Shown piece by piece: positions 1 through 10,237 of a DNA stretch of 10,237 nucleotides; position 1 is the stretch's first letter, and each line of letters begins with the position of its first letter. The stretch is from positions 1 through 10,237 of the IMG/VR virus record IMGVR_UViG_2778261151_000009. One strand, given 5' to 3'. Source of the stretch: a virus (Duplodnaviria > Heunggongvirae > Uroviricota > Caudoviricetes). A model generated the notes under the pieces. That model was given only the letters and a program-made list of their open reading frames with translations, searched no databases and had not been told where the DNA came from. Both the position numbers and the translations under genes were made by a program.

Positions 1-296
1 CGCGTTGTTTCCGGTATATCGACTTTGATGTACGGGTTAATTTGTCTGGCGACAGTGGCAAGGTCTTTATTCAGGAGGGCTTTGCATTCTGCTTCGGTAT
101 ACGTTTTACCGAGCATGATGTCTTTTCCGGTGTGTCCGTGGCATACAGTCCATACGCCAACGATATCTTTGTATGGTATGTAGCTGACACCTTCCAGACC
201 ATCGTTACCACCTGGGCCAGTGATGAGCACAGACGCTATGGCAATAGCCCCACCACCAATAGCAACTGCAACAGCCTTGCGTAATGATGGCGACAT
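1..296 (-). CDS. R: SAR endolysin (phage 21 R-like lysozyme), N-terminal ~98 codons only; gene continues beyond window start
   Basis: Absent from ORF track because truncated by the window edge. Minus-strand ATG at 296-294 overlaps the holin stop (TAATG). Own translation: [98 protein letters not shown]. It has a Gly/Ala-rich weakly hydrophobic N-terminal helix (signal-anchor-release type) followed by a lysozyme-like E-x8-D-x5-T motif, and sits directly downstream of the holin. Confidence 0.85.
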
Positions 297-511
297 TATT
301 CACCTCTCGCAGCCTTACGCTTGTCTTCTCTGATTTTGAAGTACAGATTTGTCAGATAAGTCAGGAAGCCCAGAACCAGACTCCCCAGTACACCAATCGC
401 AGCCCACTGTGACGGACTGACCTGATCAAGCCACTGTAAAAACCAGTAGCCAGCACTGCCTGCGGAGGTGCCGTAGGCAATGCCCGTTGAAATTTTGTCC
501 ATGGATTTCAT
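296..511 (-). CDS. S: Class II holin / pinholin, phage 21 S-like (71 aa) with dual-start motif M1-K-S-M4
   Basis: ORF track 296..511. Protein [71 protein letters not shown] has two TM segments and a charged C-terminus. Strong SD (GGAGGTGAGG) upstream; stop overlaps endolysin start. Confidence 0.9.
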
Positions 512-803
512 AGCCTCACCTCCGCAAATAACGGATGGCGTAGTTTTACACTGAGAAATGAAAGGGATTTGAAAAGAAAAAACCGCAAAAGCGGGCGAAA
601 CGATATATACAGTAAGGAAAGCACTCTATCCAACAAACCACTCACAGTTAATCGGAATAAAAGCAGAGTGCTTATGAATGATCGCCTGCCCGAAGGTTAG
701 TATTTCTGCACAGCAATTTTGCAAAAAAAAGCGATCATTCATAACTTAAACGTCTTTCAGTCACTCCGGGATTTCCCATCATCGCAGACTGAAAGACTCT
801 AAC

Positions 804-878
<75 letters not shown>

Positions 879-881
879 ATA

Positions 882-957
<76 letters not shown>

Positions 958-959
958 AC

Positions 960-1036
960 TGGACCGCCACCGGGGACTCGAACCTCGCACACTCAACTTA
1001 AAGGGTTGACGCTCTTTCCTGATGAGCTAGTGGCGG
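960..1036 (-). tRNA. tRNA-like gene, Lys-type anticodon UUU but atypical anticodon loop (C at position 33)
   Basis: Reverse complement CCGCCACTAGCTCATCAGGAAAGAGCGTCAACCCTTTAAGTTGAGTGTGCGAGGTTCGAGTCCCCGGTGGCGGTCCA. Perfect 7-bp acceptor stem, 4-bp D stem, 5-bp anticodon stem (TCAAC/GTTGA), loop CCTTTAA, T-loop TTCGAGT, encoded CCA. Isotype uncertain. Confidence 0.55.
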
Positions 1037-1040
1037 TTGG

Positions 1041-1113
1041 TGGCCCTTGCTGGATTTGAACCAGCGACCTGGCGATTATGAGTCGCTCGCTCTCACCACT
1101 GAGCTAAAGGGCC
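1041..1113 (-). tRNA. tRNA with CAU anticodon; resembles tRNA-Ile2 (lysidine type) more than elongator tRNA-Met
   Basis: Reverse complement GGCCCTTTAGCTCAGTGGTGAGAGCGAGCGACTCATAATCGCCAGGTCGCTGGTTCAAATCCAGCAAGGGCCACCA; anticodon loop CUCAUAA. From memory the body resembles E. coli ileX-type tRNA. Confidence 0.75.
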
Positions 1114-1215
1114 GGGCGCAGGATAATAACGTTACGAAATCAATGTTGCAAGCATTCAAAAATCACCCTTATCTCCTCCACCAGCGCATTCACCATGTCT
1201 ATCCGAGATAAGTGG

Positions 1216-1244
1216 CACAAAAAACCCGCTTGTGGGCGGGTTTT
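1216..1244 (-). terminator. tR'-like intrinsic terminator downstream of the late promoter
   Basis: Hairpin ACCCGC-ttgtgg-GCGGGT (1224-1241) with A-run on plus side (U-run in minus-strand RNA) and T-run on the other side, so potentially bidirectional. About 45-70 nt downstream of the candidate pR'. Confidence 0.6.
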
Positions 1245-1289
1245 GTTTGCTTTTGCCATCACGTAAAAAATCGGCAAAATATCAGATTT

Positions 1290-1322
1290 GCATGAATATA
1301 TGCCTTTCAATCTACTTTTGCA
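1290..1322 (-). promoter_or_regulatory. Candidate late promoter pR' (-35 TTGCAA, ~16-17 bp spacer, -10 TATATT) overlapping the Q-like gene end
   Basis: Minus-strand reading ttgcaaaagtagattgaaaggcaTATATTcatg. Position between the Q-like gene and the terminator/tRNA/lysis block matches lambdoid late-region architecture. Confidence 0.45.
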
Positions 1323-1995
1323 ACACTTTGCTTTGAAAATGCCGTCTTTTTTTTGAACGTGTTCTCATTACAAACAATAAAGCCTCACTATCCAGTCGGT
1401 GAAAAATGTGTTTCATTGCAACCCAGTGACGAGTAAATGTTTTGGACCAGTTTTTAGTTGTCACTCCCGCCAGTAATGCCAGCTCCTGGTATTCATAACC
1501 TTCCCCACCAAAAAGTTCTGCTTTTACTGCCTGCGCCGCCAGCCAGATTAATTTTTTCAGGCGTTCCTGCGTTTTCCCTGCAATTTTTCTGGTACCGGAT
1601 TGAGCATTAAATTCATTCCACGCCCACTGTGTTATCGCGATCTGATATTCCCAACAAATACTCCCGCTGTAACACCACAACAACCAGGCTTTATGATGTT
1701 CTTCAAGAGACAGAACAGCCCGCCGCCACGATGATGTCGAAAACTCAACCGGACTGACCAGAGGAATTGACGTCCCCTTCGCCAGCGATTGCTTTCCCGG
1801 GATTGGTGGATTATCCCGCGTTATCATTTTTCCAGTCACTTCATCGCGGTACCGGATTTTTTTACGCCTGTAACGCCCTGTATCGAACATGGCATTCTCT
1901 TGCCAGGCTTCAAGCTGACCTTTTGTTGCCCCACTCAAATCAGCGGTGGCGATAATGAGCTGCTCACGCACAAACTGTAAATACTGGTTATTCAT
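1312..1995 (-). CDS. Putative late-gene antiterminator Q-like protein (227 aa from ATG at 1995; family assignment by position)
   Basis: ORF track 1312..2001 (its first codon is GTG). ATG at 1995-1993 overlaps the rusA stop as ATGA. Located immediately upstream of the pR'-like promoter, tR' hairpin, tRNAs and the S/R cassette, downstream of rusA. No motif verified by search. Confidence 0.55.
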   Translation of the reverse strand: MNNQYLQFVREQLIIATADLSGATKGQLEAWQENAMFDTGRYRRKKIRYRDEVTGKMITRDNPPIPGKQSLAKGTSIPLVSPVEFSTSSWRRAVLSLEEHHKAWLLWCYSGSICWEYQIAITQWAWNEFNAQSGTRKIAGKTQERLKKLIWLAAQAVKAELFGGEGYEYQELALLAGVTTKNWSKTFTRHWVAMKHIFHRLDSEALLFVMRTRSKKRRHFQSKVLQK

Positions 1996-2351
1996 GCGCA
2001 CCCCAGTTCTGTGATTTTTATCCCCAGCCGCCCACCAGGAACGAGCTGACCGCGCACAATATTGATTTCATCAAACTGCTCGTCGTCTATAAGTAGTCCA
2101 GCATGCGTCAGCGCATCCAGCGGTGCCTTCAGGATATTGTCCAGGTCACGACGGCGCTTATCCGGTGGCTCTGCAATAATCTTTATCGCCAGCCTTCCGG
2201 ACAGGTTTAATTTCAGTCGCTGCTGGCGAACAATTAGCGCCACATCACGGCGATAACGCTCACCGGCTTTTGATACAGTCGCCAGTAGGTGTTCACCGTT
2301 GGCGGGTAAGGCAAAACAAATTCTATGCGTTCGGTCATTTATGCTTTCCAC
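1992..2351 (-). CDS. rusA: Holliday-junction resolvase RusA; N-terminal region apparently frameshifted (possible pseudogene or sequencing error)
   Basis: ORF track protein contains PDKRRRDLDNILKAPLDALTHAGLLIDDEQ and GGRLGIKITELG, matching the RusA catalytic core. The canonical N-terminal motif (MTERIEFVLPYPPTVNTYWR) is in another frame, starting at ATG 2338-2336 right after the upstream stop. Confidence 0.8.
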   Translation of the reverse strand: MESINDRTHRICFALPANGEHLLATVSKAGERYRRDVALIVRQQRLKLNLSGRLAIKIIAEPPDKRRRDLDNILKAPLDALTHAGLLIDDEQFDEINIVRGQLVPGGRLGIKITELGCA

Positions 2352-3397
2352 TTCAGAACACCCGAATTTCTCGCGTGCATTAAAAAACGAATCAGCAACA
2401 ACAACTGACTACCGTGTTTTTCTTCAAAATCTTTTACCCCGGCGTGTAGTTCGTTATGGCATTTACGACACAGCGGAATAACAAACAAATCGTCAGCCTT
2501 TGTTCCCATCCCTCCCAGTCCATGACCAATGATGTGGTGCGGATCATCTGCCTGATTGCCACACGTCATGCATTTCTGCGTTTTTACCCAGCGCGTGTAT
2601 ACAGGCATCTCTTCCCGTTGTGGTTTCTGGCGCTGGAGATACTGAGCCGGAGATTCCGGATCAACGGCAATGCTGACCACCGTCTCTTCCTGTGGTGGAT
2701 TCTGTTGCTGGTGGGCGTGAGGCAGCGGCGCAAGATTTTTTGTGCGCTGCTTCAGTATGCTGGTGGCGGTCTGCTCTCCCGGCACGATGTCGCTTTCACG
2801 GTACATTGAGCGGATTTTTTCCGCACGCAACCCCAGCGAACGACGTAATACCGCTTCCGGTAGCGCGTCCGCCACCTGATTGCGGACCGCCCACCAGGAT
2901 AATTCAGCCAGAGATAATTCACGCTCCTGCGTACCGCTTATTGCGTGACCGATGACGTCAATCATCCATGCTGACAGGTTTTGATGAGCAAGTTGCTCGA
3001 GTGATTCGGATGTCTGGTCACGCAACTGGTTGTCGCAGTGCCAGCACAACACCATTGCGCCGGTACCATAACGGTGAATGACGGTTTCGCTGTGATGATA
3101 ATCGCCGTGTGGCCACTGGCAGGATTTAATATGGCGCAACAGCCAGTCAGACAATGCACCAGCACCACCAGCAGCACGAATCACCCGTGCGTTACTGAAA
3201 AACGGCAGCAATGTTTTGTCTTCCACTAGCGGCTGGCGAACGGCAGGAACGACCCCGGACGGCAGATTACGCATGCTTTTCGGTTCCGGCTCCACCAGTA
3301 CCCGGGTATTGTGGAATACCGGCATGGATTCACGGCCTGGCTTAAGGACCACCAGCCCGAGTTCCGGAACCAGAACAGGTCGAAGTAATACCCGCAC
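2339..3397 (-). CDS. DUF968 / YdfU-like prophage protein with C-terminal HNH-like zinc-binding motif
   Basis: ORF track 352 aa; first codon is GTG overlapping the upstream stop. C-terminus CMTCGNQADDPHHIIGHGLGGMGTKADDLFVIPLCRKCHNELH = CxxC...HH...CxxCH...H. Position between a Rem-like gene and rusA matches Qin-type prophages. Confidence 0.7.
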   Translation of the reverse strand: MRVLLRPVLVPELGLVVLKPGRESMPVFHNTRVLVEPEPKSMRNLPSGVVPAVRQPLVEDKTLLPFFSNARVIRAAGGAGALSDWLLRHIKSCQWPHGDYHHSETVIHRYGTGAMVLCWHCDNQLRDQTSESLEQLAHQNLSAWMIDVIGHAISGTQERELSLAELSWWAVRNQVADALPEAVLRRSLGLRAEKIRSMYRESDIVPGEQTATSILKQRTKNLAPLPHAHQQQNPPQEETVVSIAVDPESPAQYLQRQKPQREEMPVYTRWVKTQKCMTCGNQADDPHHIIGHGLGGMGTKADDLFVIPLCRKCHNELHAGVKDFEEKHGSQLLLLIRFLMHARNSGVLKWKA

Positions 3398-3398
3398 A

Positions 3399-3677
3399 TT
3401 ACCTCCAGATCCGTTGCTGGAACGTGCAGGACGGACGCGGTGGCCGTTCGGAATAAGGGAGCCTGACGAAGATTATCCAGTGACGATAATCGAGACTGAG
3501 GGCTTTCTTAATCTCGTATCCGTGTCTGCGGTAGCGCTGAATCAGCCATTCAGCCTGTTCTTCGGTGCAGGGGTCGTGCTGATACCAGTCAGATTTGAAT
3601 GCATGAGAACGCCGCCCGTGCCTGCTGGCAGGGGCGGCAGAGTTATCCGAATTGTAAAATTTGGTATCGTGCGCCAT
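3399..3677 (-). CDS. Small conserved prophage protein (Rem-like position), ~92 aa from internal ATG
   Basis: ORF track gives 3399..3806, but codons 1-43 are translated through the hok terminator hairpin and U-tract (3745-3776). ATG at 3677-3675 is the first start downstream of that terminator. Start and identity uncertain. Confidence 0.45.
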   Translation of the reverse strand: MAHDTKFYNSDNSAAPASRHGRRSHAFKSDWYQHDPCTEEQAEWLIQRYRRHGYEIKKALSLDYRHWIIFVRLPYSERPPRPSCTFQQRIWR

Positions 3678-3744
3678 CTGTTTTCTCTGCTGGCGCAGCA
3701 GGTGCCAGTTGTTCAGGCTGACGGATGGATTGTAAACCAGAACG

Positions 3745-3776
3745 ACCAGAAAAAACAAAACCCGCCGAAGCGGGTT
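3745..3776 (-). terminator. Intrinsic terminator ending the hok transcript
   Basis: 7-bp stem AACCCGC / GCGGGTT (3759-3776) with CGAA tetraloop, followed on the minus strand by UUUGUUUUUUCU. Not U-rich on the plus side, so unidirectional. Confidence 0.6.
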
Positions 3777-3844
3777 AAGTGCGGGTGCGTTGAGGATGCC
3801 TGACACATCAGCGGTGGCGAGGGATTTCTCCCCCGCCGGGTCTC

Positions 3845-4000
3845 TTACTCCTCAGGTTCGTAAGCTGTGAAGACAGCGACCTCCGTCTGGCCGGTTCGGA
3901 TTCGTACCTCGCAGAGGTCTTTCCTCGTTACCAGTGCCGTCACTATGACGGTTAAACAGATGACGATAAGGGCGATTAACATCGCCTTTTGCTGCTTCAT
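3845..4000 (-). CDS. hok: Hok/Gef family type I toxin (51 aa)
   Basis: MKQQKAMLIALIVICLTVIVTALVTRKDLCEVRIRTGQTEVAVFTAYEPEE is a single TM helix plus the conserved Hok periplasmic tail. ORF track extends it in frame to an upstream ATG at 4057. Flanked by promoter, terminator and 5'/3' complementary elements. Confidence 0.9.
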   Translation of the reverse strand: MKQQKAMLIALIVICLTVIVTALVTRKDLCEVRIRTGQTEVAVFTAYEPEE

Positions 4001-4176
4001 AGCCTGCTTCTCCTTGCCTTTCGGCACGTAAGAGGCTAACCTACATGTGTTCAGCATGGATTGAGCCTCAGATTAATGTTAAGCGTCTTGCAGGACGCGT
4101 AATGTTAACTGGGGCTTTTCTCTATCTGCCTTTTGGTGTTCATGCCTGAGACAGATAGCCTCAAGCACCCGCAGTC

Positions 4177-4204
4177 ATTCTACTTAACTAAGATTTCCCT
4201 GCAA
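4177..4204 (-). promoter_or_regulatory. Candidate hok promoter (-35 TTGCAG, 16-bp spacer, -10 TAGAAT)
   Basis: Minus-strand reading tTTGCAGggaaatcttagttaagTAGAATgactgcGGGTGC. Predicted start falls right at the 5' element (4158-4172) that is complementary to the 3' end of the transcript. Confidence 0.4.
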
Positions 4205-4259
4205 ACCGTTTTTGTCCGGCACAGTAAATATCCAACTAAACCAATAGCGTTCGCTGTAT

Positions 4260-4439
4260 TTACCGCCAGTATTCAATGCACATGACCGCCATGAACACCC
4301 CTAAAAAAAGGGCATTTATATGTCCAAACATTAATATCAAAACATCAATTTTTTCCATATACCTTGCTGTGAAGATGATGGGCATACATGATGCGAACAA
4401 CCAGAACGCAACAAACAAAAACTGCAATGCGTTTTTCAT
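4260..4439 (-). CDS. Small hydrophobic membrane protein, possibly a lipoprotein (59 aa from ATG with strong SD)
   Basis: ORF track 4260..4478; Met14 (ATG 4439-4437) is preceded by AGGGGGAATA. Protein MKNALQFLFVAFWLFASCMPIIFTARYMEKIDVLILMFGHINALFLGVFMAVMCIEYWR has a signal-like N-terminus ending in a lipobox-like FASC and a second hydrophobic helix. Lies in an AT-rich island. Confidence 0.5.
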   Translation of the reverse strand: MKNALQFLFVAFWLFASCMPIIFTARYMEKIDVLILMFGHINALFLGVFMAVMCIEYWR

Positions 4440-4651
4440 TATTCCCCCTACAATCAATGTGCAATAACATTTAAACACACCTCAATTTGGCCGGACATAT
4501 AAATATCTAAACCAGAAAAAATCACTTACATAGCGTTACAAACTCTTTAGTCTAAATACTCATCGTAAAACATTCCCCATACTTATCAGTCCGTTCCGCG
4601 CCAGGTAGCTTATTGCCTTATCTGGCAACCTATAATCAGGTTTCCGCTTTT

Positions 4652-5074
4652 TCAGTTGGCTGGTCGTTTAACCGACATAGTTAACCCATTAATCTGGTTG
4701 CCGGATGCTGGTGGATTTTCGCGTTTTAGTTGTTCATAAAAGTGCACAGCTTTAACCAGTTCTTCTGATGTAACCGGGACTGGTGGGGCAGTGAATAAGG
4801 CCTGAATTTCATAGTTCGGCCTGTCGTTACAATCCTCTTTTTTCGGTACATATTTCCAGTCACCAACCCACAACTCCCCCTGAGAGTCCATAACACCTTT
4901 TTTCACGTAGCGATATCGCCACGCTATCGGCTCTGCTTCCAGCGATGCCCGTGCAATTTTGAATAACTCGCCCTCTACTCGCGCCATCCCTGAATTGGGG
5001 TGGCATTTCGTAATCGCTATTTTTAATTTGGCTTCTTCGATTAATTGTTCTTTTGTTAATTCAGTCATTTTCAT
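4652..5074 (-). CDS. Hypothetical phage protein (140 aa)
   Basis: ORF track; ATG start with second Met at codon 3. Upstream has AGGAGG followed by a CCGCC-TGAAAG-GGCGG hairpin. No family recognised. Confidence 0.6.
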   Translation of the reverse strand: MKMTELTKEQLIEEAKLKIAITKCHPNSGMARVEGELFKIARASLEAEPIAWRYRYVKKGVMDSQGELWVGDWKYVPKKEDCNDRPNYEIQALFTAPPVPVTSEELVKAVHFYEQLKRENPPASGNQINGLTMSVKRPAN

Positions 5075-5164
5075 TACCGCCCTTTCAGGCGGCCTCCTGA
5101 TGTTCTGAGGGTGCAGAAATCCCTCCGGTTAAGGATTAAATTTTATTTGCTGTGCTAAATTTAA

Positions 5165-5620
5165 TTATTCAGTTTTTATTCCTGCTCTCAAAACAGCCTC
5201 TGCCATTCTGATATCCGGATTTTCTGAAATCATCTTTTCCGGCGAGTCGCAATCACCACCACATTCAGTTATGCGTTCATGACCAAAACGAATTGTGGTT
5301 TTGTGCGCATTAATCATTTGTGTAAGCGCATCTGTCAATTCTGCAATGCGTTTGTCTTTAACTTCCAGCTCTTTCAGTAAAGCCAGTACGTCAGGATCGC
5401 TAACATCAACGACGGTTACGCGCGATTTCAGGTAATGCTCATCCGCAAAAGTTCGACCAGTTTTAAAATATCCATCATCCCCCTCACCTGTGCAGGCATA
5501 CACAATATGCGTTCTGGAAAATATGCGCTGTATCGACATTTCATCGCCACAAACAGGACATTCCGGCACCTGAATTGGTGAATAACGTTCACGTAATGCC
5601 TGGTAATTAGTCTTGCACAC
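5165..5620 (-). CDS. Hypothetical protein with zinc-ribbon-like Cys motifs and a coiled-coil segment (151 aa)
   Basis: ORF track; GTG start preceded by TTTTCAGGAGA. CPVCG...C and ECGGDCD motifs; LKELEVKDKRIAELTDALTQM heptad-like stretch. Overlaps the upstream gene by 14 nt. Confidence 0.6.
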   Translation of the reverse strand: MCKTNYQALRERYSPIQVPECPVCGDEMSIQRIFSRTHIVYACTGEGDDGYFKTGRTFADEHYLKSRVTVVDVSDPDVLALLKELEVKDKRIAELTDALTQMINAHKTTIRFGHERITECGGDCDSPEKMISENPDIRMAEAVLRAGIKTE

Positions 5621-5912
5621 TGGCTGTCTCCTGAAAAATCACCGCATGCCCCAGTTTCTCCGCCAGCGCCAGTTCTGCCTTAGCGCCTGCTGACCGCTGC
5701 CAGCCTTTCAGCATGTAAATCGCATCCACACAACGAATCATCGCCATGCAGATATCCATGTACTGCGGCTGTGTCAGCCCGTCCGGAAGTACTGCCGGGT
5801 TTAAGACGGTATGCCCTTCCCGTTTCAGTTCCTCTTCCGCATTGTGAAACGCCTCACGGTTGAAATTTTTATACCCGGTCATTGGACCGGCGATATAGAC
5901 TCTCACCCTCAC
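5607..5912 (-). CDS. DUF4406-like protein (nucleoside 2-deoxyribosyltransferase-like fold family), 101 aa
   Basis: N-terminus RVYIAGPMTGYKNFNREAFHNAEEELKREGHTVLNPA matches the characteristic YIAGPMTG...NF...F...G..V.NP signature. GTG start overlaps the upstream stop (GTGA); SD AGGAGG 7 nt upstream. Confidence 0.7.
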   Translation of the reverse strand: MRVRVYIAGPMTGYKNFNREAFHNAEEELKREGHTVLNPAVLPDGLTQPQYMDICMAMIRCVDAIYMLKGWQRSAGAKAELALAEKLGHAVIFQETASVQD

Positions 5913-6331
5913 GCCATCACCTCCTGAAAATTACCCTGATAAAACGACAATATGCGCTGCATAACTTCGCTCTTCCGGCACTCGCGACAGATTATGTTTA
6001 GGCGACTGTCGTAGCGACGTATTTCTCCGTCAGGTAATGACCAGATAAGGTCCGGATCAACCGCAGATGGTTTCTTCAGCTTTGCCCTTGAGAGCTTTTT
6101 ACGAGCATTTTGCCAGTCCTTACGCGCCTGTTCAGACGGGAATAACCCGTAACCAGAGTTGTATACATCGCCACTGGCAACCAGCTCTCTGGCCAGAATG
6201 CTCATCAGATATCTTGTTGCCCCAGTTTTAGCTTCCAGTTGTCGTAACGTCTCGCGCCCACTCTGGCGTACGAGTTCAAGAACCTGCCCTTTAATTTTTT
6301 CCCGCTCTTCTTGTGTAAAAACTTTTGCCAC
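5909..6331 (-). CDS. Hypothetical protein (140 aa), possible winged-helix N-terminus
   Basis: ORF track; GTG start with SD AGGAGGG 4 nt upstream. No Walker A motif, so not an obvious DnaC-like loader. Confidence 0.6.
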   Translation of the reverse strand: MAKVFTQEEREKIKGQVLELVRQSGRETLRQLEAKTGATRYLMSILARELVASGDVYNSGYGLFPSEQARKDWQNARKKLSRAKLKKPSAVDPDLIWSLPDGEIRRYDSRLNIICRECRKSEVMQRILSFYQGNFQEVMA

Positions 6332-6371
6332 AAGCCCTCCTGAAAATTACCTCATGACCAGAAATTAACAC

Positions 6372-7442
6372 TTACCCCCTGAAGCCCGGCGGAATTTCGT
6401 TATCCGGTTCAGAAATATGATTCACACAACGCTGGTTGTTCGTGCCGCTTACCGGGAGCAACCAGGGGTTCTCAAAATTCCGGTCCGGTCCAAAAAACGT
6501 CGTCGCTCGCTGAACAAATTCCGTTCCCGTTTTCCCGGTAGCCGCCAGGTATCTTGCGTAACGCCTCACGCCATCCAGCATGGCCTCTGGTGGCACCCCC
6601 TCGCGTAATCTGGCCTTCCAGGCACTGAAAGCGGATTTCTTCGGGTTTGCCCCGGCACGCAACGGGTACTCCCGCCAGACCTGTTCGAACACATCCGGAT
6701 AATCCACTCGTCCCACAGACTGCCCGGTGTTTTCCGGGACTACCCGATCGGCTTCCCGCTGAATGGCGGAATCGGCTTCAGGCTGCTGCAGTTGGTGTGA
6801 TTGCTCCGGACTTGCGGTCATCACCTGCTGCACAGCGCCCGAATCGGCTTTCAGCGCATACGCTGAATCGGCTTCCGGTGTCGTGCCTGCTGGCTGACCA
6901 GGATTGACGGTCTGAACATCCCCTGCCTGGTTCGTGGCGTTTTTTACGCCATGGACCATAGTGTTTTGATCTTCTTGATCTGTATCTTTATCTGTATCTT
7001 TATCTGTCGTGACTCGTCGTGACATGTGCGTGACATATCGTGACGCGCCGTGACAATCGCCATTTTGTTCCCGCTTTCTTTCCCTCTCTCGCTGCGCCCT
7101 CTTGCGCTCTGCAGGAGATTTTGCGGTTTGCGAAATATTGCCGTTGTCCTCTTTCAGCACCTGGCGTTTTTCCCATCCAGTGATTAAATCACCATCAAGT
7201 ACCCGCCCCTGCATCGTCTGCAAAATTGAATCAATTACCTCTTCTGTCACGTCGAGCGCACTTGCCAAATCTTCTGTCGTGACATCAATGTGACCTCGCG
7301 TGACATTTCGTGACGCGCTCACCAGGAGGTGGATATACACTGCCATCACTGTTGCAATTGGCTGCCCTGACACCCTGGCAATTGTTCGCCACTTAGGGTC
7401 ATTTGGCATGTCATGCCATAATCTGAGCCAGGCGTTAGCCAT
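6372..7442 (-). CDS. Putative replication initiator (O-like: N-terminal HTH, low-complexity linker, C-terminal domain) with iteron clusters inside the coding sequence
   Basis: ORF track 6372..7448 (GTG); ATG at 7442-7440 has SD AAGAGGTGA. Position after Cro-like and YdaT-like genes. Acidic repeat linker TTDKDTDKDTDQEDQ; basic stretch KRAQRERERKRE. Two clusters of CGTGAC direct repeats at helical-turn spacing inside the gene. Confidence 0.65.
   Translation of the reverse strand: MANAWLRLWHDMPNDPKWRTIARVSGQPIATVMAVYIHLLVSASRNVTRGHIDVTTEDLASALDVTEEVIDSILQTMQGRVLDGDLITGWEKRQVLKEDNGNISQTAKSPAERKRAQRERERKREQNGDCHGASRYVTHMSRRVTTDKDTDKDTDQEDQNTMVHGVKNATNQAGDVQTVNPGQPAGTTPEADSAYALKADSGAVQQVMTASPEQSHQLQQPEADSAIQREADRVVPENTGQSVGRVDYPDVFEQVWREYPLRAGANPKKSAFSAWKARLREGVPPEAMLDGVRRYARYLAATGKTGTEFVQRATTFFGPDRNFENPWLLPVSGTNNQRCVNHISEPDNEIPPGFRG
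7008..7054. repeat. Iteron-like cluster 1: five direct CGTGAC repeats at 10-11 bp spacing
   Basis: Copies start at 7008, 7018, 7029, 7039 and 7049, immediately preceded by a tandem 12-bp repeat ATCTGTATCTTT x2.5 (6978-7013). Confidence 0.6.
7246..7314. repeat. Iteron-like cluster 2: CGTGAC at 7278, 7299, 7309, variant TGTGAC at 7289, inverted copy GTCACG at 7246
   Basis: Same hexamer and 10-11 bp phasing as cluster 1, about 225 bp away, within the N-terminal coding part of the initiator gene. Confidence 0.55.
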
Positions 7443-7513
7443 ACTCACCTCTTTTGATACCGAATCTTTTTACTCACAAATTGCCGGAAGTGATCCGGTA
7501 TGAATATTGCGAG

Positions 7514-7939
7514 TCAATGCACAGCCACAATATTTCCTGCAGGGCCACCACGATTCATCTGGTTGAAACCAGCGATCGCCACTGCGACAAAATCATCAGC
7601 GTCTCTCACCAGTCGTTCCCGCGTCTCCACTAGTTCCCGAAAATAGGCTGAGCTATGGCTGCGCATTCGGGCCACCAGCAGAGGTGGCATTGCTTTTTCG
7701 ATAGCTGGTAACAACGCCTGAATTTTTTTAAGCGCATCAGGGGGGTCTTTCTCCACCCAGCGGAAAATTTTCTGAGTATTGCGAGCCAGGGCTTCCGGAT
7801 GGCTGTCGTCATACAGTTCCGGGAACGTCATTCCCAGCTCGAAATACGCTTTGGTAATTTTCGCAGCCGGTACTTTTTCGCCGTCCGGATGCGCCCAGGC
7901 ATTCATCGCCATGCGGATGTGTTCATGCTTGATTTTCAT
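7514..7939 (-). CDS. YdaT-like protein (position equivalent to CII in lambdoid early operons), 141 aa
   Basis: ORF track; ATG overlaps Cro-like stop as ATGA. Sits immediately downstream of the Cro-like gene. Family name from memory of Rac/CP-933P YdaT, not verified. Confidence 0.5.
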   Translation of the reverse strand: MKIKHEHIRMAMNAWAHPDGEKVPAAKITKAYFELGMTFPELYDDSHPEALARNTQKIFRWVEKDPPDALKKIQALLPAIEKAMPPLLVARMRSHSSAYFRELVETRERLVRDADDFVAVAIAGFNQMNRGGPAGNIVAVH

Positions 7940-8190
7940 GAATCAACTCCCATCAGCTTTTTCGTAGTAGTTTTATTCCTGCCAATAGTTAAAATTGCAT
8001 CGGCAGAAAATAATCCGTTTGATGCAAGAGCGATTTTTTCAGCGTAATTTGTTTCGCCGGTATATTCTGTGCGAGGCAATTTTCCGTTATCCATCCATTT
8101 ATAGATTGCTCTTTGGCTGACACCACAAACGTCGGCCACAACAGCAACGCGAACAGTTTTGATTACATCTTCAAGTGTTTTCTGGTTCAT
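7936..8190 (-). CDS. Cro-like HTH DNA-binding protein (84 aa from ATG 8190)
   Basis: ORF track 7936..8262, but the ATG at 8190-8188 has SD GAGGGTG 6 nt upstream. HTH signature VVADVCGVSQRAIYKWMDNGKLP. Divergent from the repressor gene. Confidence 0.7.
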   Translation of the reverse strand: MNQKTLEDVIKTVRVAVVADVCGVSQRAIYKWMDNGKLPRTEYTGETNYAEKIALASNGLFSADAILTIGRNKTTTKKLMGVDS

Positions 8191-8269
8191 ATCACCCTCA
8201 CAATGTGAACTTTGAGTACATGCTATAACAGAACTGACAGTACATTCAAGAGCGAATATCATTGAACTT
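8191..8269. promoter_or_regulatory. Divergent promoter/operator region between the Cro-like and repressor genes
   Basis: Repressor-side promoter: -35 CTGACA (8234-8239), 17-bp spacer, -10 TATCAT (8257-8262). Cro-side: -35 TTGAAT (plus 8244-8249), -10 TATAGC (plus 8222-8227). Two AACnnnnAGTACAT motifs at 8208-8221 and 8232-8245. Confidence 0.55.
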
Positions 8270-8689
8270 ATGGTTCATGAAGATAAAGCGCGTAAAGAGT
8301 TCGCCAGTAGGCTTGCGCTAGCCTGTGAAAACGCTGGTTATGAACAACATGGAAGGCAGGCAGAAATTGCCCGTCGAATGAAATTAACACCAAAAGCGGT
8401 TAGCAAATGGTTTAATGGCGAAACAATTCCTCGCCGGGAGAAATTAAGGGAATTAGCAACACTAATAGGAACAACACCAACCTATCTTTTGGGAGAGGAT
8501 ACAGAAGAAAGTGGACAGGTACGTTTCTATCAGGAGTTAAATCCAAGACAAAAAATCATCATTGACCTTCTGGACGAGCTCCCTGACAGTGAGACAGATG
8601 AACTTTTAAAAACTCTTGAAGAGAAAAAACAGAAGTACAATGCAATTTACGAAGAGTTAGCACGAAAGAAAAAACAAAAAGCCTCTTAA
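8270..8689 (+). CDS. CI/DicA-like XRE-family repressor lacking a peptidase domain (139 aa)
   Basis: ORF track; HTH GRQAEIARRMKLTPKAVSKWFNGETIP; C-terminal acidic/coiled segment. Divergent from Cro-like gene. No SD, with -10 placed about 7 nt before the ATG, suggesting a leaderless mRNA. Confidence 0.8.
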   Translation: MVHEDKARKEFASRLALACENAGYEQHGRQAEIARRMKLTPKAVSKWFNGETIPRREKLRELATLIGTTPTYLLGEDTEESGQVRFYQELNPRQKIIIDLLDELPDSETDELLKTLEEKKQKYNAIYEELARKKKQKAS

Positions 8690-8759
8690 ACCAGCATAAA
8701 TCCGGTAGCGCCTTCCTCCGGGTTTGTGCTTCACTTTATCCCATCTCATTTTTTTACAC

Positions 8760-8810
8760 ACAAAATGTACTATAAGTACTTTACAACAATGAACGCAAAG
8801 TACATTATAT
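8760..8810 (+). promoter_or_regulatory. Operator/promoter region upstream of the ydfA-like operon
   Basis: Near-palindrome ATGTACT-ATA-AGTACTT (8764-8780) and AACgcaaAGTACAT (8791-8804) overlap a candidate promoter (-35 TTTACA 8779-8784, -10 CATTAT about 8802-8807). Confidence 0.45.
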
Positions 8811-8986
8811 ACCTGCCACCCACCCCGCCCCACAGAATGCAGGGCAATACTTCGAGTTACCAGGCAGTGGTCAGGGGTTAAGTAGCCAGCCCGAGGCGTA
8901 AGAACATGACGGCAGGGTTCAACTTTAATAACTATGCAGCAGGTTTTTGTTCCGCTACCCCGGCGTTAAGGGGAAATGAGGTCAGC

Positions 8987-9142
8987 ATGGATACTATCGA
9001 TCTTGGCAACAACGAATCTCTGGTGTACGGCGTGTTTCCCAACCAGGACGGCACCTTCACCGCAATGACGTATACCAAAAGCAAAACGTTTAAAACCGAA
9101 TCTGGAGCGCGTCGCTGGCTGGAAAGAAATTCAGGTGGGTGA
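8987..9142 (+). CDS. ydfA: YdfA-like small protein (51 aa)
   Basis: Internal ATG of ORF track 8906..9142 with SD GAGGT 4 nt upstream. Protein MDTIDLGNNESLVYGVFPNQDGTFTAMTYTKSKTFKTESGARRWLERNSGG. Size and position after the DicA-like repressor match Qin ydfA (from memory). Confidence 0.6.
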   Translation: MDTIDLGNNESLVYGVFPNQDGTFTAMTYTKSKTFKTESGARRWLERNSGG

Positions 9143-9143
9143 T

Positions 9144-9272
9144 ATGGATTTCGACACAATCATGGAAAAGGCTTACGAAGAATACTTCGAAGGCCTTGCC
9201 GAAGGCGAAGAAGCTCTCAGCTTCAGCGAATTTAAACAGGCGCTTTCCAGTTCGGCAAAATCTAACGGCTGA
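9144..9272 (+). CDS. ydfB: YdfB-like small protein (42 aa)
   Basis: Not in ORF track (too short). ATG 9144 with SD AGGTGGG; own translation MDFDTIMEKAYEEYFEGLAEGEEALSFSEFKQALSSSAKSNG. Start 1 nt after the ydfA-like stop. Confidence 0.6.
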   Translation: MDFDTIMEKAYEEYFEGLAEGEEALSFSEFKQALSSSAKSNG

Positions 9273-9300
9273 TAAGCGAAACAGCACGCGAGGAATCAGT

Positions 9301-9411
9301 ATGCAGAAACGAGAACCCGTCATCATCGCGCCAGACTATACCGATGATGAACTTTATGAGTGGATTTTGGCGGCATCAGTTTCATTGCTGGCTGATGTCC
9401 GCCCTTTTTAA
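9301..9411 (+). CDS. YdfC-like short ORF (36 aa), uncertain; its 3' end is the DicF-like hairpin
   Basis: ATG 9301 with SD GAGGAA; own translation MQKREPVIIAPDYTDDELYEWILAASVSLLADVRPF. The coding sequence runs through the terminator hairpin, so it may be truncated or partly non-coding. Confidence 0.35.
   Translation: MQKREPVIIAPDYTDDELYEWILAASVSLLADVRPF
9357..9409 (+). ncRNA. dicF: DicF-like sRNA (processed 3' end of the ydfABC transcript) with intrinsic terminator
   Basis: GGCGGCATCAG...CTGATGTCCGCC hairpin (9369-9403) followed by TTTTT. Sequence and position after ydfC resemble E. coli DicF (from memory); 5' end not determinable here. Confidence 0.55.
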
Positions 9412-9591
9412 AGTGAATTTTGTGATGCGGTGAATGCGGCTCAGCGCACGCGGAACAGTTAAAACAGTAAGGAAAATCCCTTATTCCGGCGTTAATTATT
9501 AACTGGTTAACGTCACCTGGAGGCACCAGGCACCGCATCAACAAAGTTCACTTCGGTGATGAAAGGTAAGAGAAAATGTTGAATGTAGCTA

Positions 9592-9703
9592 TTGAAAACC
9601 AGAACGGGTGGAATTATAGTGCACCTGCACCTCATAAAACGGGTGCCGGGCGTGGAAACCCGAAATCATTCACGGCGCATAACCGCGCTCAGGCGGTTTT
9701 TTT
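9592..9703 (+). promoter_or_regulatory. Promoter-terminator unit: -35 TTGAAA (9592-9597), 17 bp, -10 TATAGT (9615-9620); terminator hairpin ACCGC-gctcag-GCGGT plus T7 (9682-9703)
   Basis: Near-consensus sigma70 elements followed about 60-75 nt later by a stem-loop and seven T. Could be a small RNA or an attenuating leader for the Rha-family gene. Confidence 0.4.
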
Positions 9704-9872
9704 ATGCGTTAAGCACAGCCACATTCGCATTATGGTGGGGCGTGCAGGGCAACCGCAAGGCTGGCCGGGTTCCGTGATGACCGGTATTTCCACCCCTGTA
9801 CGTCTCACCACCCTTATGGTCGTGGAAAACCTCGGTGGTGAGTTAATCAAATTCATCGCGGAGGCTGCCATC

Positions 9873-10237
9873 ATGGCTACTATCCTTACCCTTTCTCACC
9901 CTGACGTAACCATCGAAAATGGTCGCGCTGTCACTACGTCTGTTGCGATCGCCGAGTTCTTTGGCAAACGCCACGAACGAGTGTTGGATAAAATTCGCAA
10001 TCTGGACTGTTCAGCAAAATTCACTGAGCACAATTTTGTGTCGAGCGAATACACCGACTCAACCGGGCGCAAACTCCCAATGTACCAAATCACCAAAAAC
10101 GGCTTCGTTTTCCTGGTGATGGGCTTCACGGGCAAAAAAGCCGCCGCATTCAAAGAGGCATACATTGCTGAGTTCGACCGCATGGAGGCCGAACTGCGCC
10201 AGAATAACACCCCACCTGCTGACAAGATGATTCCGGG
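9873..10237 (+). CDS. rha: Rha-family phage regulatory protein, N-terminal part; gene continues beyond window end
   Basis: Absent from ORF track (no stop in window). ATG 9873 with SD GGAGG 8 nt upstream. Own translation MATILTLSHPDVTIENGRAVTTSVAIAEFFGKRHERVLDKIRNLDCSAKFTEHNFVSSEYTDSTGRKLPMYQITKNGFVFLVMGFTGKKAAAFKEAYIAEFDRMEAELRQ matches the pRha domain signature. Confidence 0.75.
   Translation, partial: MATILTLSHPDVTIENGRAVTTSVAIAEFFGKRHERVLDKIRNLDCSAKFTEHNFVSSEYTDSTGRKLPMYQITKNGFVFLVMGFTGKKAAAFKEAYIAEFDRMEAELRQNNTPPADKMIP

Follow-up and report, generated by a model that had tools for sequence, protein, structure and literature searches.

The window, by which we mean the whole stretch of DNA that was analysed, is 10,237 nucleotides long and comes from a virus of the Caudoviricetes (positions 1 to 10,237 of IMG/VR record IMGVR_UViG_2778261151_000009). 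The features described here all lie on its minus strand. The Q gene (2001..1312; Pfam PF06323, Phage_antiter_Q, 6e-91) is accompanied by a pR'-like late promoter (1323..1295) and a tR'-like terminator (1250..1215), both upstream of a tRNA unit. A promoter scan finds a sigma-70 promoter for the tRNA operon at 1151..1123 (TTGCAA, a 17-bp spacer, TATTAT), and its G+C-rich discriminator CCTGCGCCC abuts the first tRNA. This discriminator resembles those of stringently controlled stable-RNA promoters. The first tRNA has the anticodon CAT (1038..1113); ARAGORN calls it Met and PGAP calls the equivalent gene tRNA-Ile. Next comes tRNA-Lys(UUU) (960..1036) in the variable second slot of the array, where the anticodon changes between relatives, then tRNA-Thr(UGU) (882..957) as the third tRNA and tRNA-Gly(UCC) (804..878) as the last. 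A non-coding gap of 292 nt (512-803) separates tRNA-Gly from the first lysis gene, a holin S of the phage 21 type (296..511), which is identified by Pfam PF04971 (Phage_holin_2_1, 1.4e-35) and by the annotation of relatives.

The gap holds two perfect inverted repeats that are genuine and far above chance. In the 14-bp repeat TTATGAATGATCGC (672-685) faces GCGATCATTCATAA (731-744) across a spacer of 45 nt, and in the 11-bp repeat GTCTTTCAGTC (752-762) faces GACTGAAAGAC (787-797) across 24 nt; complementarity is 100% in both. As a control, 512-803 was shuffled 2000 times with its dinucleotide composition preserved. With loops of up to 60 nt allowed, perfect arms of 14 bp or more appeared in 0/2000 shuffles and arms of 11 bp or more in 5/2000. 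The original prediction had described two perfect repeats with these coordinates and spacers, in a non-coding gap of about 290 bp directly after the last tRNA, and all of this is borne out: on the minus strand only 6 nt separate the end of tRNA-Gly(UCC) at 804 from the 11-bp repeat. Two further features of the gap had been missed. One is a third perfect repeat of 9 bp (619-627/665-673) and the other is a terminator-like hairpin with a U-tract at 594..572.

The minus strand is the sense strand for the tRNAs and for the late operon. Folding of the minus-strand transcript had been proposed as a check on the repeats, and the RNA of 803..512 gives three consecutive hairpins, H1 (797..752), H2 (744..672) and H3 (673..619). 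The minimum free energy of the whole is -92.5 kcal/mol with a z score of -4.8, and the plus strand reaches a z of -2.9. Each hairpin folded alone has a z of about -4.7. H1 is the 11-bp repeat (752..797; -22.5 kcal/mol, z -4.8). Its 13 consensus pairs are the 11 of the repeat and 2 more past a 1-nt bulge, and beyond an internal loop there is an apical stem of 4 pairs, 3 of them G-C, that reads GGG-AAAU-CCC. H2 is the 14-bp repeat (672..744; -26.3 kcal/mol, z -4.7), with an outer stem of 13-16 pairs, an inner helix of 8 pairs and a CC-UUCG-GG mini-hairpin. H3 is the third repeat (619..673; -20.7 kcal/mol, z -4.7), with a basal stem of 8 pairs and an upper stem of 10. The loops and internal loops are better conserved than the stems. 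The H1 loop CUGCGAUGAUGGG...CCCGGAGUGAC and the H2 segment UUUUUGCAAAAUUGCUGUG are near-invariant, and the apical GGUGGUUUGUUGGAU of H3 is conserved. Between the CCA end of tRNA-Gly and H1 lies a single-stranded, A/U-rich linker, GUUAGA (798..803). Its initial G and U never vary, and neither do columns A2, G3 and T4 of alignment A2. We consider this linker a candidate cleavage site for an endonuclease of the RNase E type. We are highly confident that the two repeats correspond to H1 and H2 in a non-coding RNA that measures about 190 nt and is built of three conserved hairpins (803..613, minus strand).

The fold is recovered from comparative data. RNAalifold, applied to a MAFFT alignment of 53 distinct homologues, yields the three hairpins, made up of six helices and 56 pairs. 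Standard pairs occupy 98.8% of the pair cells in this alignment, and a control in which the 3' partners are slid by 1-3 columns leaves 39-47%. Double changes occur at 9 pairs, and there are 121 compensatory cells against 41 +/- 4 in shuffles. A covariance model built from the 53 sequences matches the window at a single place (613-805, minus strand, 230 bits) and was used to make a broader alignment of 61 distinct sequences. Here double changes are found in 31 of the 56 pairs against 11 +/- 1.8 in shuffles, a number reached by none of 500 shuffles, and 96.7% of cells are paired; these values lean towards the structure because the alignment was fitted to the model. Much of the covariation splits two main clades, so there are fewer independent events than the cell counts suggest.

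The individual substitutions are of the kinds that keep a helix. Between the two main clades H1 changes U-A to C-G and C-G to U-A, one of its positions shows the series A-U, G-U and G-C, and another shows U-A, C.A and C-G. The compensatory changes in H2 are A-U to U-A and U-A to G-C. In H3 three consecutive basal pairs swap compensatorily between the clades. Many sequences have G-U at 12 of the pairs, and the plus-strand equivalents of these would be A-C mismatches, so the constraint must be on the minus-strand RNA. The fold is specific to that RNA and has been kept through compensatory changes across the prophages of Enterobacteriaceae. It had been suggested that the repeats could be RNA processing or terminator structures of the tRNA precursor. 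The part about RNA structure stands, since compensatory and G-U changes keep the pairing of the minus-strand RNA in the 3' trailer. The part about terminators does not, since no U-tract comes after H1 or H2. A protein-binding role, which had been suggested as well, is conceivable; the apical and internal loops are better conserved than the stems.

We tried H1 and H2 as intrinsic terminators and rejected them on several grounds. GUUUAAGUU comes after H1 and H3 directly after H2, the loops of the two span 24 and 45 nt, and a terminator scan of the window reported neither. The intrinsic terminator of the tRNA unit sits further downstream, past the third hairpin (594..572, CCGC-UUUU-GCGG then U6-C-U4). 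A G-to-U change in the sub-clade of the window has cut its stem to 4 bp, and its energy is -6.6 kcal/mol in the window versus -13.7 in close relatives (GCCCGC/GCGGGC) and -15.3 in HK639. The terminator sequence is clade-specific: close relatives have GCCCGC-UUUU-GCGGGC and the HK639 clade has CCUCGC-UUCG-GCGAGG. The HK639 record annotates the latter hairpin as a terminator, and three terminators follow the HK639 homologue. A simple scan finds a terminator after H3 in 47 of 77 distinct downstream contexts. The order of tRNA-Gly (ending at 804), H1-H3 (797..619) and terminator (594..572), all on the minus strand, is the same in most of 121 distinct contexts. In the window another 60 nt lead from the U-tract to the holin gene.

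The most instructive comparison is with an Stx2 phage. There the same tRNA promoter stands ahead of ileZ-argN-argO, a similar terminator (GGCTCGCTTTTGCGGGCC plus T6) comes 12 nt past argO, and stxAB lies beyond it. The covariance model, run on this phage with filters off, finds no H1-H3 (best score 9 bits). Since this phage shares the promoter, has a similar terminator, lacks the hairpins and carries stx past the terminator, the hairpins look like cargo inside the tRNA unit. Our conclusion from the comparison is that the three hairpins are an insert within the tRNA unit, placed after its last tRNA and ahead of its terminator. As a cargo, stx occupies a site past that terminator, and in the window this interval measures only 60 nt. 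The original prediction had taken the position of the hairpins to be that of the toxin genes in Stx phages and had offered a scar of cargo loss as one explanation. Neither idea survives: the compared Stx2 phage has stx after the terminator, and the repeats are upstream of the terminator in a conserved insert.

What surrounds the hairpins in other prophages points to the tRNA array as their partner. [quoted passage not shown] The upstream neighbour of the element is a tRNA, usually Gly(UCC), that ends 4-14 nt away in most of the 121 distinct contexts. The first downstream ORF varies, and includes at least four unrelated families of the holin type, an IS element and morons. Because the downstream genes vary, we believe the RNA travels with the tRNA array and not with any particular lysis gene. 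The tRNA operon appears to be an independent transcription unit with its own predicted promoter. It is at the 3' end of the tRNA array that the element is anchored, and conservation extends to the predicted promoter and terminator on either side of the unit. In HK639 the tRNAs have decayed and the stretch from tR' to the tRNA remnant is too short for a promoter of its own, which would leave read-through from pR' as the only source of the RNA there.

The gap is found in 540 of 5426 complete E. coli genomes (about 10%), with a median of 1 copy per genome and a maximum of 5. No copies are on plasmids in this set, and all sampled loci are in a phage late-region context. These numbers led us to reject a dispersed palindromic repeat or MITE. 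In the phage collection six records have the gap, one of them HK639 with 76% identity. About 150 loci came from two pattern scans of IMG/VR and one scan of GTDB species genomes, and the genuine-looking GTDB matches are in E. coli, Shigella flexneri, Enterobacter hormaechei, Citrobacter sedlakii, Yokenella regensburgei and Phytobacter ursingii. The original prediction was open to the objection that the repeats might be absent or unconserved in related prophages; they are present in this tenth of E. coli genomes and in other Enterobacteriaceae. The hairpins can be lost singly, H1 being absent from about 15 loci and H3 from about 15. H2 is the module most often retained, a result to be read with the fact that one of the two locus-gathering scans used an H2 sequence. 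Salmonella phage Fels-1 has a decayed copy with a 540-bp moron inserted between H1 and H2. The single losses and the Fels-1 gene argue against one obligatory fold of all three hairpins.

The element does not correspond to any RNA family that we searched for. A cmscan of the whole window against 4227 Rfam 15 families at E<=1 gave nothing in 512-803 on either strand, and the Rfam models for AgvB, AsxR, Esr41, STnc100, isrK and the tRNA-like families have no match there. Descent from tRNAs was rejected, as local alignments of H1, H2 and H3 to the four tRNAs are no better than shuffles. A GAUGAUG heptamer is common to the hairpins and tRNA-Gly and is not significant. A promoter inside H2 (TTGCAA, 16 bp, TACTAA) was dismissed since its -10 lacks the final T and is unconserved. 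The H1 loop GAUGAUGG can be likened to the PasA target motif, a resemblance we rejected for its two mismatches to the PasA seed. The partial PasA (5'-...GCCAGCACCUCUCCACCGAAAGUCAGUGCU) and partial PasD1 and PasD2 sequences given in a published supplement (PMC8550237) are absent from 512-803 in a comparison made by eye. Literature searches, made by topic as well as by sequence string, turned up no account of the element.

Nor does the gap seem to encode a protein. The only sizeable ORF, of 38 amino acids with its start at 742, was rejected as coding: it is absent in 24 of 53 relatives. What breaks it is apparently a T-run whose length varies by 1-2 nt between near-identical sequences, and it lacks an upstream Shine-Dalgarno sequence. 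'Hypothetical proteins' are annotated in the gap of phage 689R5 on the plus strand and of 606R7 on the minus strand. These annotations are mutually inconsistent, and the short ORFs are probably spurious. The element is best filed as an apparently undescribed member of the tRNA-operon trailers and prophage structured RNAs, and it is unannotated in the records examined.

Our confidence in the structure and context of the element is high, and in its function low. We think it probable that the RNA of H1-H3 is the 3' trailer of an autonomous tRNA operon in a lambdoid late leader, and that it is stable and most likely acts in trans. In lysogens the tRNA unit's own promoter would drive its transcription, and during lytic growth Q-modified polymerase that starts at pR' would transcribe it. 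An endonuclease would cut in the invariant CCA-GU linker, which would free tRNA-Gly on one side and, on the other, a stable structured trailer RNA of about 190-230 nt with its end at the terminator. The terminator would shield the lysis genes from promoter-driven transcription, and it is likely an insulator between constitutive tRNA transcription and those genes. The released trailer would then act in trans, as a base-pairing or sponge RNA or by binding a protein through its conserved loops, in the manner of the 3'ETS-leuZ RNA discussed below. This putative trans-acting step, suggested by analogy, is the weakest link of the mechanism.

The alternative that deserves the most attention is that the hairpins act in cis, either by guiding the maturation of the last tRNA or by shielding the late mRNA from 5'-end-dependent decay by RNase E. 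The 5' hairpin of ompA protects its mRNA against just this kind of decay. A cis element would explain why H1 starts only 4-14 nt past the CCA end in most contexts, why the RNA reads in the same sense as the late operon, why the hairpins are modular and independently stable, and why they are kept whatever lysis cassette comes after them. The cis reading also draws on the geometry of the transcript, because excision of the tRNAs would leave H1 only a few nucleotides from the newly made 5' end. The Stx2 phage speaks against it. That phage, with the shared promoter and similar terminator, manages without hairpins, which makes it unlikely that tRNA maturation or the stability of the late mRNA depends on them, and a cargo RNA is favoured over a purely cis-acting element. 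One hairpin would also suffice for 5' protection, loops more conserved than stems are unexpected for a purely steric role, and a terminator stands between the hairpins and the lysis genes that they would protect. On this evidence a cis role seems to us unlikely, if still worth keeping in mind.

It is less likely again that the RNA is a decoy that binds a protein, for instance a host tRNA-targeting nuclease or some other defence or RNA-binding protein, with the loops as recognition sites. Such a putative role would suit the strict linkage to a tRNA array whose second slot changes its anticodon, and would suit near-invariant loops on covarying stems. Modular hairpins could also serve as independent binding sites. 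Against it, the hairpins have no sequence similarity to the tRNAs and mimic neither the T-loop nor the anticodon loop.

We find it very hard to defend any explanation at the level of DNA, whether the repeats are taken for a scar left by departed cargo (stx, for example), for a miniature inverted-repeat element or for a palindromic protein site in double-stranded DNA. The site is within the known moron insertion zone downstream of pR', and a gene did insert between H1 and H2 in Fels-1. However, the G-U pairs suit one strand only, a median of one copy per genome that is always in a prophage late region is not the pattern of a dispersed repeat, stx is after the terminator and not at the hairpin position in the Stx2 phage, and the covariance model finds a single copy in the window, on the minus strand. 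A put-type antiterminator RNA, acting in cis to make polymerase resist downstream terminators, would fit stem-loops in a phage operon leader with terminators just downstream, and would fit HK639, which we take to carry a put-like RNA and which has a homologue followed by three terminators, but it is equally implausible: these phages encode Q, which already supplies late antitermination, constitutive transcripts that ran on from the tRNA promoter into the holin gene would do harm, the element comes after tRNAs and not after a promoter and has three hairpins and not two, and it is absent from an Stx2 phage of the same layout.

Returning to a stable trailer that acts in trans, its role can be narrowed only speculatively. 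One possibility is sponging of a host sRNA; another is titration of a protein that binds RNA or targets tRNAs. It is conceivable, and we offer this tentatively, that it represents an unrecognised family of phage-borne regulatory or counter-defence RNA, trans-acting in lysogens and in late infection. Prophage tRNA genes are usually viewed only as codon-usage or anti-defence cargo. If the regulatory or counter-defence reading is true, the tRNA arrays of temperate phages also deliver RNA cargo that is not tRNA. If the RNA is both stable and trans-acting, it would be a new class of prophage sRNA and a phage counterpart of 3'ETS-leuZ. In widespread lambdoid prophages the tRNA unit appears to be a cassette running from promoter to terminator, with a conserved structured RNA of about 190 nt among its contents. 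We believe the element is a well-supported candidate RNA family in a much-studied neighbourhood, and it overturns no known principle.

Several known systems resemble the element in part. The put RNAs (HK022, HK639) are found just downstream of early promoters, form two stem-loops and replace a protein antiterminator; HK639 is presumably a phage with a put-like antiterminator RNA. Like the element, they are stem-loop RNAs in phage operon leaders, and HK639 carries a homologue of the element. They differ in that the element has three hairpins, comes after tRNAs in a late leader and belongs to phages with Q. Lambda 6S RNA and StxS are small RNAs of late leaders that start at pR' and end at tR'. 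They share with the element the leader of a lambdoid late operon and a boundary at an intrinsic terminator. In the window, unlike in these cases, the pR'-tR' unit (1323..1215) is separate from the tRNA operon and upstream of it.

A second group of candidates is at the moron site. AgvB and AsxR are prophage sRNAs at this site downstream of pR' (PMC4104026), and so at the moron site are PasA, PasC and PasD (PMC8550237; Zhu et al., bioRxiv 10.64898/2026.05.13.724894). Like the element, these are non-coding RNAs of E. coli lambdoid prophages that lie between Q/pR' and the holin-lysozyme genes, some of them with a terminator. The differences begin with orientation. The moron-site sRNAs are convergent to late transcription (PMC4104026) and PasA is on the strand opposite to its flanking genes (PMC8550237), whereas the element is co-oriented with both. 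AgvB, AsxR and the Pas RNAs are also 80-240 nt long, Hfq-dependent and unattached to tRNAs, and the element is attached to a tRNA.

In working principle the closest analogues are probably the small stable RNAs of the T4 tRNA cluster and 3'ETS-leuZ. The T4 species 1 and 2 (rnaC and rnaD) are stable structured RNAs of unknown function that are processed from the phage tRNA cluster. The likeness is that both they and the element are phage-borne structured RNAs co-transcribed with a tRNA cluster. T4, however, is a virulent and unrelated phage and the element belongs to lambdoid prophages, and we know of no T4 small stable RNA that lies between tRNAs and a lysis cassette. 3'ETS-leuZ, reportedly described by Lalaouna et al. 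in 2015, derives from the 3' external transcribed spacer of glyW-cysT-leuZ, a tRNA operon of E. coli. It is reported to be freed by an endonucleolytic cut just 3' of the last tRNA. It appears under the name 3'ESTleuZ in a supplementary table (PMC8550237). 3'ETS-leuZ is chromosomal, about 50 nt long and essentially a terminator hairpin plus a seed, whereas the element is from a prophage, is about 190 nt long and has three extra hairpins. The two have no apparent sequence similarity, and any sponge or Hfq activity of the element is putative. What they have in common is their place in the operon: each is a non-coding 3' trailer between the last tRNA and the intrinsic terminator, co-transcribed with the tRNAs.

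The tRNA unit of this prophage is a portable cassette that runs from promoter to terminator and is common to Stx and non-Stx lambdoid phages. The comparison with the Stx2 phage Stx2a_F349 is what leads us to this reading, since in that phage the tRNA unit has the same promoter as in the window, a terminator resembling window 572-600 lies immediately 3' of argO (3890-3910 of its locus), and the stx2 genes come only after this terminator. The terminator that follows the third conserved hairpin (H3) of the structured RNA has a stem of only 4 bp in the window and its sub-clade (572-594, -6.6 kcal/mol); in close relatives the stem is 6 bp (-13.7 kcal/mol). In the window, RNA synthesis started at the tRNA promoter may run on into the holin gene.

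Two of the tRNAs carried by the unit, tRNA-Thr(UGU) and tRNA-Gly(UCC) at 804-958, share 99.4% identity with tRNA genes that almost every E. coli genome carries on its chromosome, which suggests that the phage copies were captured from the host. The matching chromosomal genes are annotated tRNA-Tyr, tRNA-Thr and tRNA-Gly, and correspond to the thrU-tyrU-glyT-thrT-tufB operon. The second slot of the array, occupied here by tRNA-Lys (960-1036), behaves differently from the others. Its anticodon varies among otherwise alike arrays (the window, L010, L014, L022, L029, L039, L065, L080, L110 and other compared loci), while CAT, Thr-UGU and Gly-UCC are fixed across the same arrays. The forms encountered were Lys-UUU, Arg-UCU, Phe-AAA/GAA, Leu-UAA/CAG, Asn-GUU, a single 'Stop-UUA' call, and several tRNAs whose anticodon loops are unusual. 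Selective pressure from tRNA-targeting defence systems could lie behind this switching, as could suppressor tRNAs.

Salmonella phage Fels-1 (2001-2704 of its locus) has lost the tRNAs and the H3 of the structured RNA; its H1 is degenerate and its H2 intact, and between these two lies a 540-bp insert that holds STM0906.1n, an ORF of 120 aa with a signal-peptide-like N-terminus. The hairpin boundaries may be joints for recombination or moron insertion. In HK639 (2675-2830) a gene resembling tRNA-Asn(GTT) and what remains of a tRNA-Gly that is truncated at its 5' end lie immediately upstream of the phage's copy of the element; the record annotates no tRNA around these positions. The deposited annotations of vB_EcoS-689R5 (1570-1701, plus strand) and vB_EcoM-606R7 (1627-1743, minus strand) each place a short 'hypothetical protein' ORF within the structured RNA, the two facing in opposite directions; both ORFs are probably spurious.

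Other parts of the window match Rfam families. The sok antitoxin RNA match at 3995-4170 (minus strand) is strong (118.9 bits against a gathering score of 59) and indicates that the prophage carries a toxin-antitoxin locus of the hok/sok type. Matches to prophage regulatory RNAs cluster on the plus strand at 9355-9815: DicF-like (9355-9404, 43.3 bits, under its gathering score of 48), STnc100-like (9416-9545, 33.5 bits, also below gathering), isrK (9627-9703, 67.7 bits) and C4 antisense RNA (9728-9815, 76.3 bits).

Upstream of the tRNA unit, at 1215-1323, a pR'-like promoter (TTGCAA, 17 bp, TATATT) overlaps the end of Q, with a strong tR'-like terminator after it. Together they delimit a leader RNA, about 70 nt long, which is weakly similar to isrJ and isrK (E 0.4-0.5) and is placed as lambda 6S RNA and StxS are.
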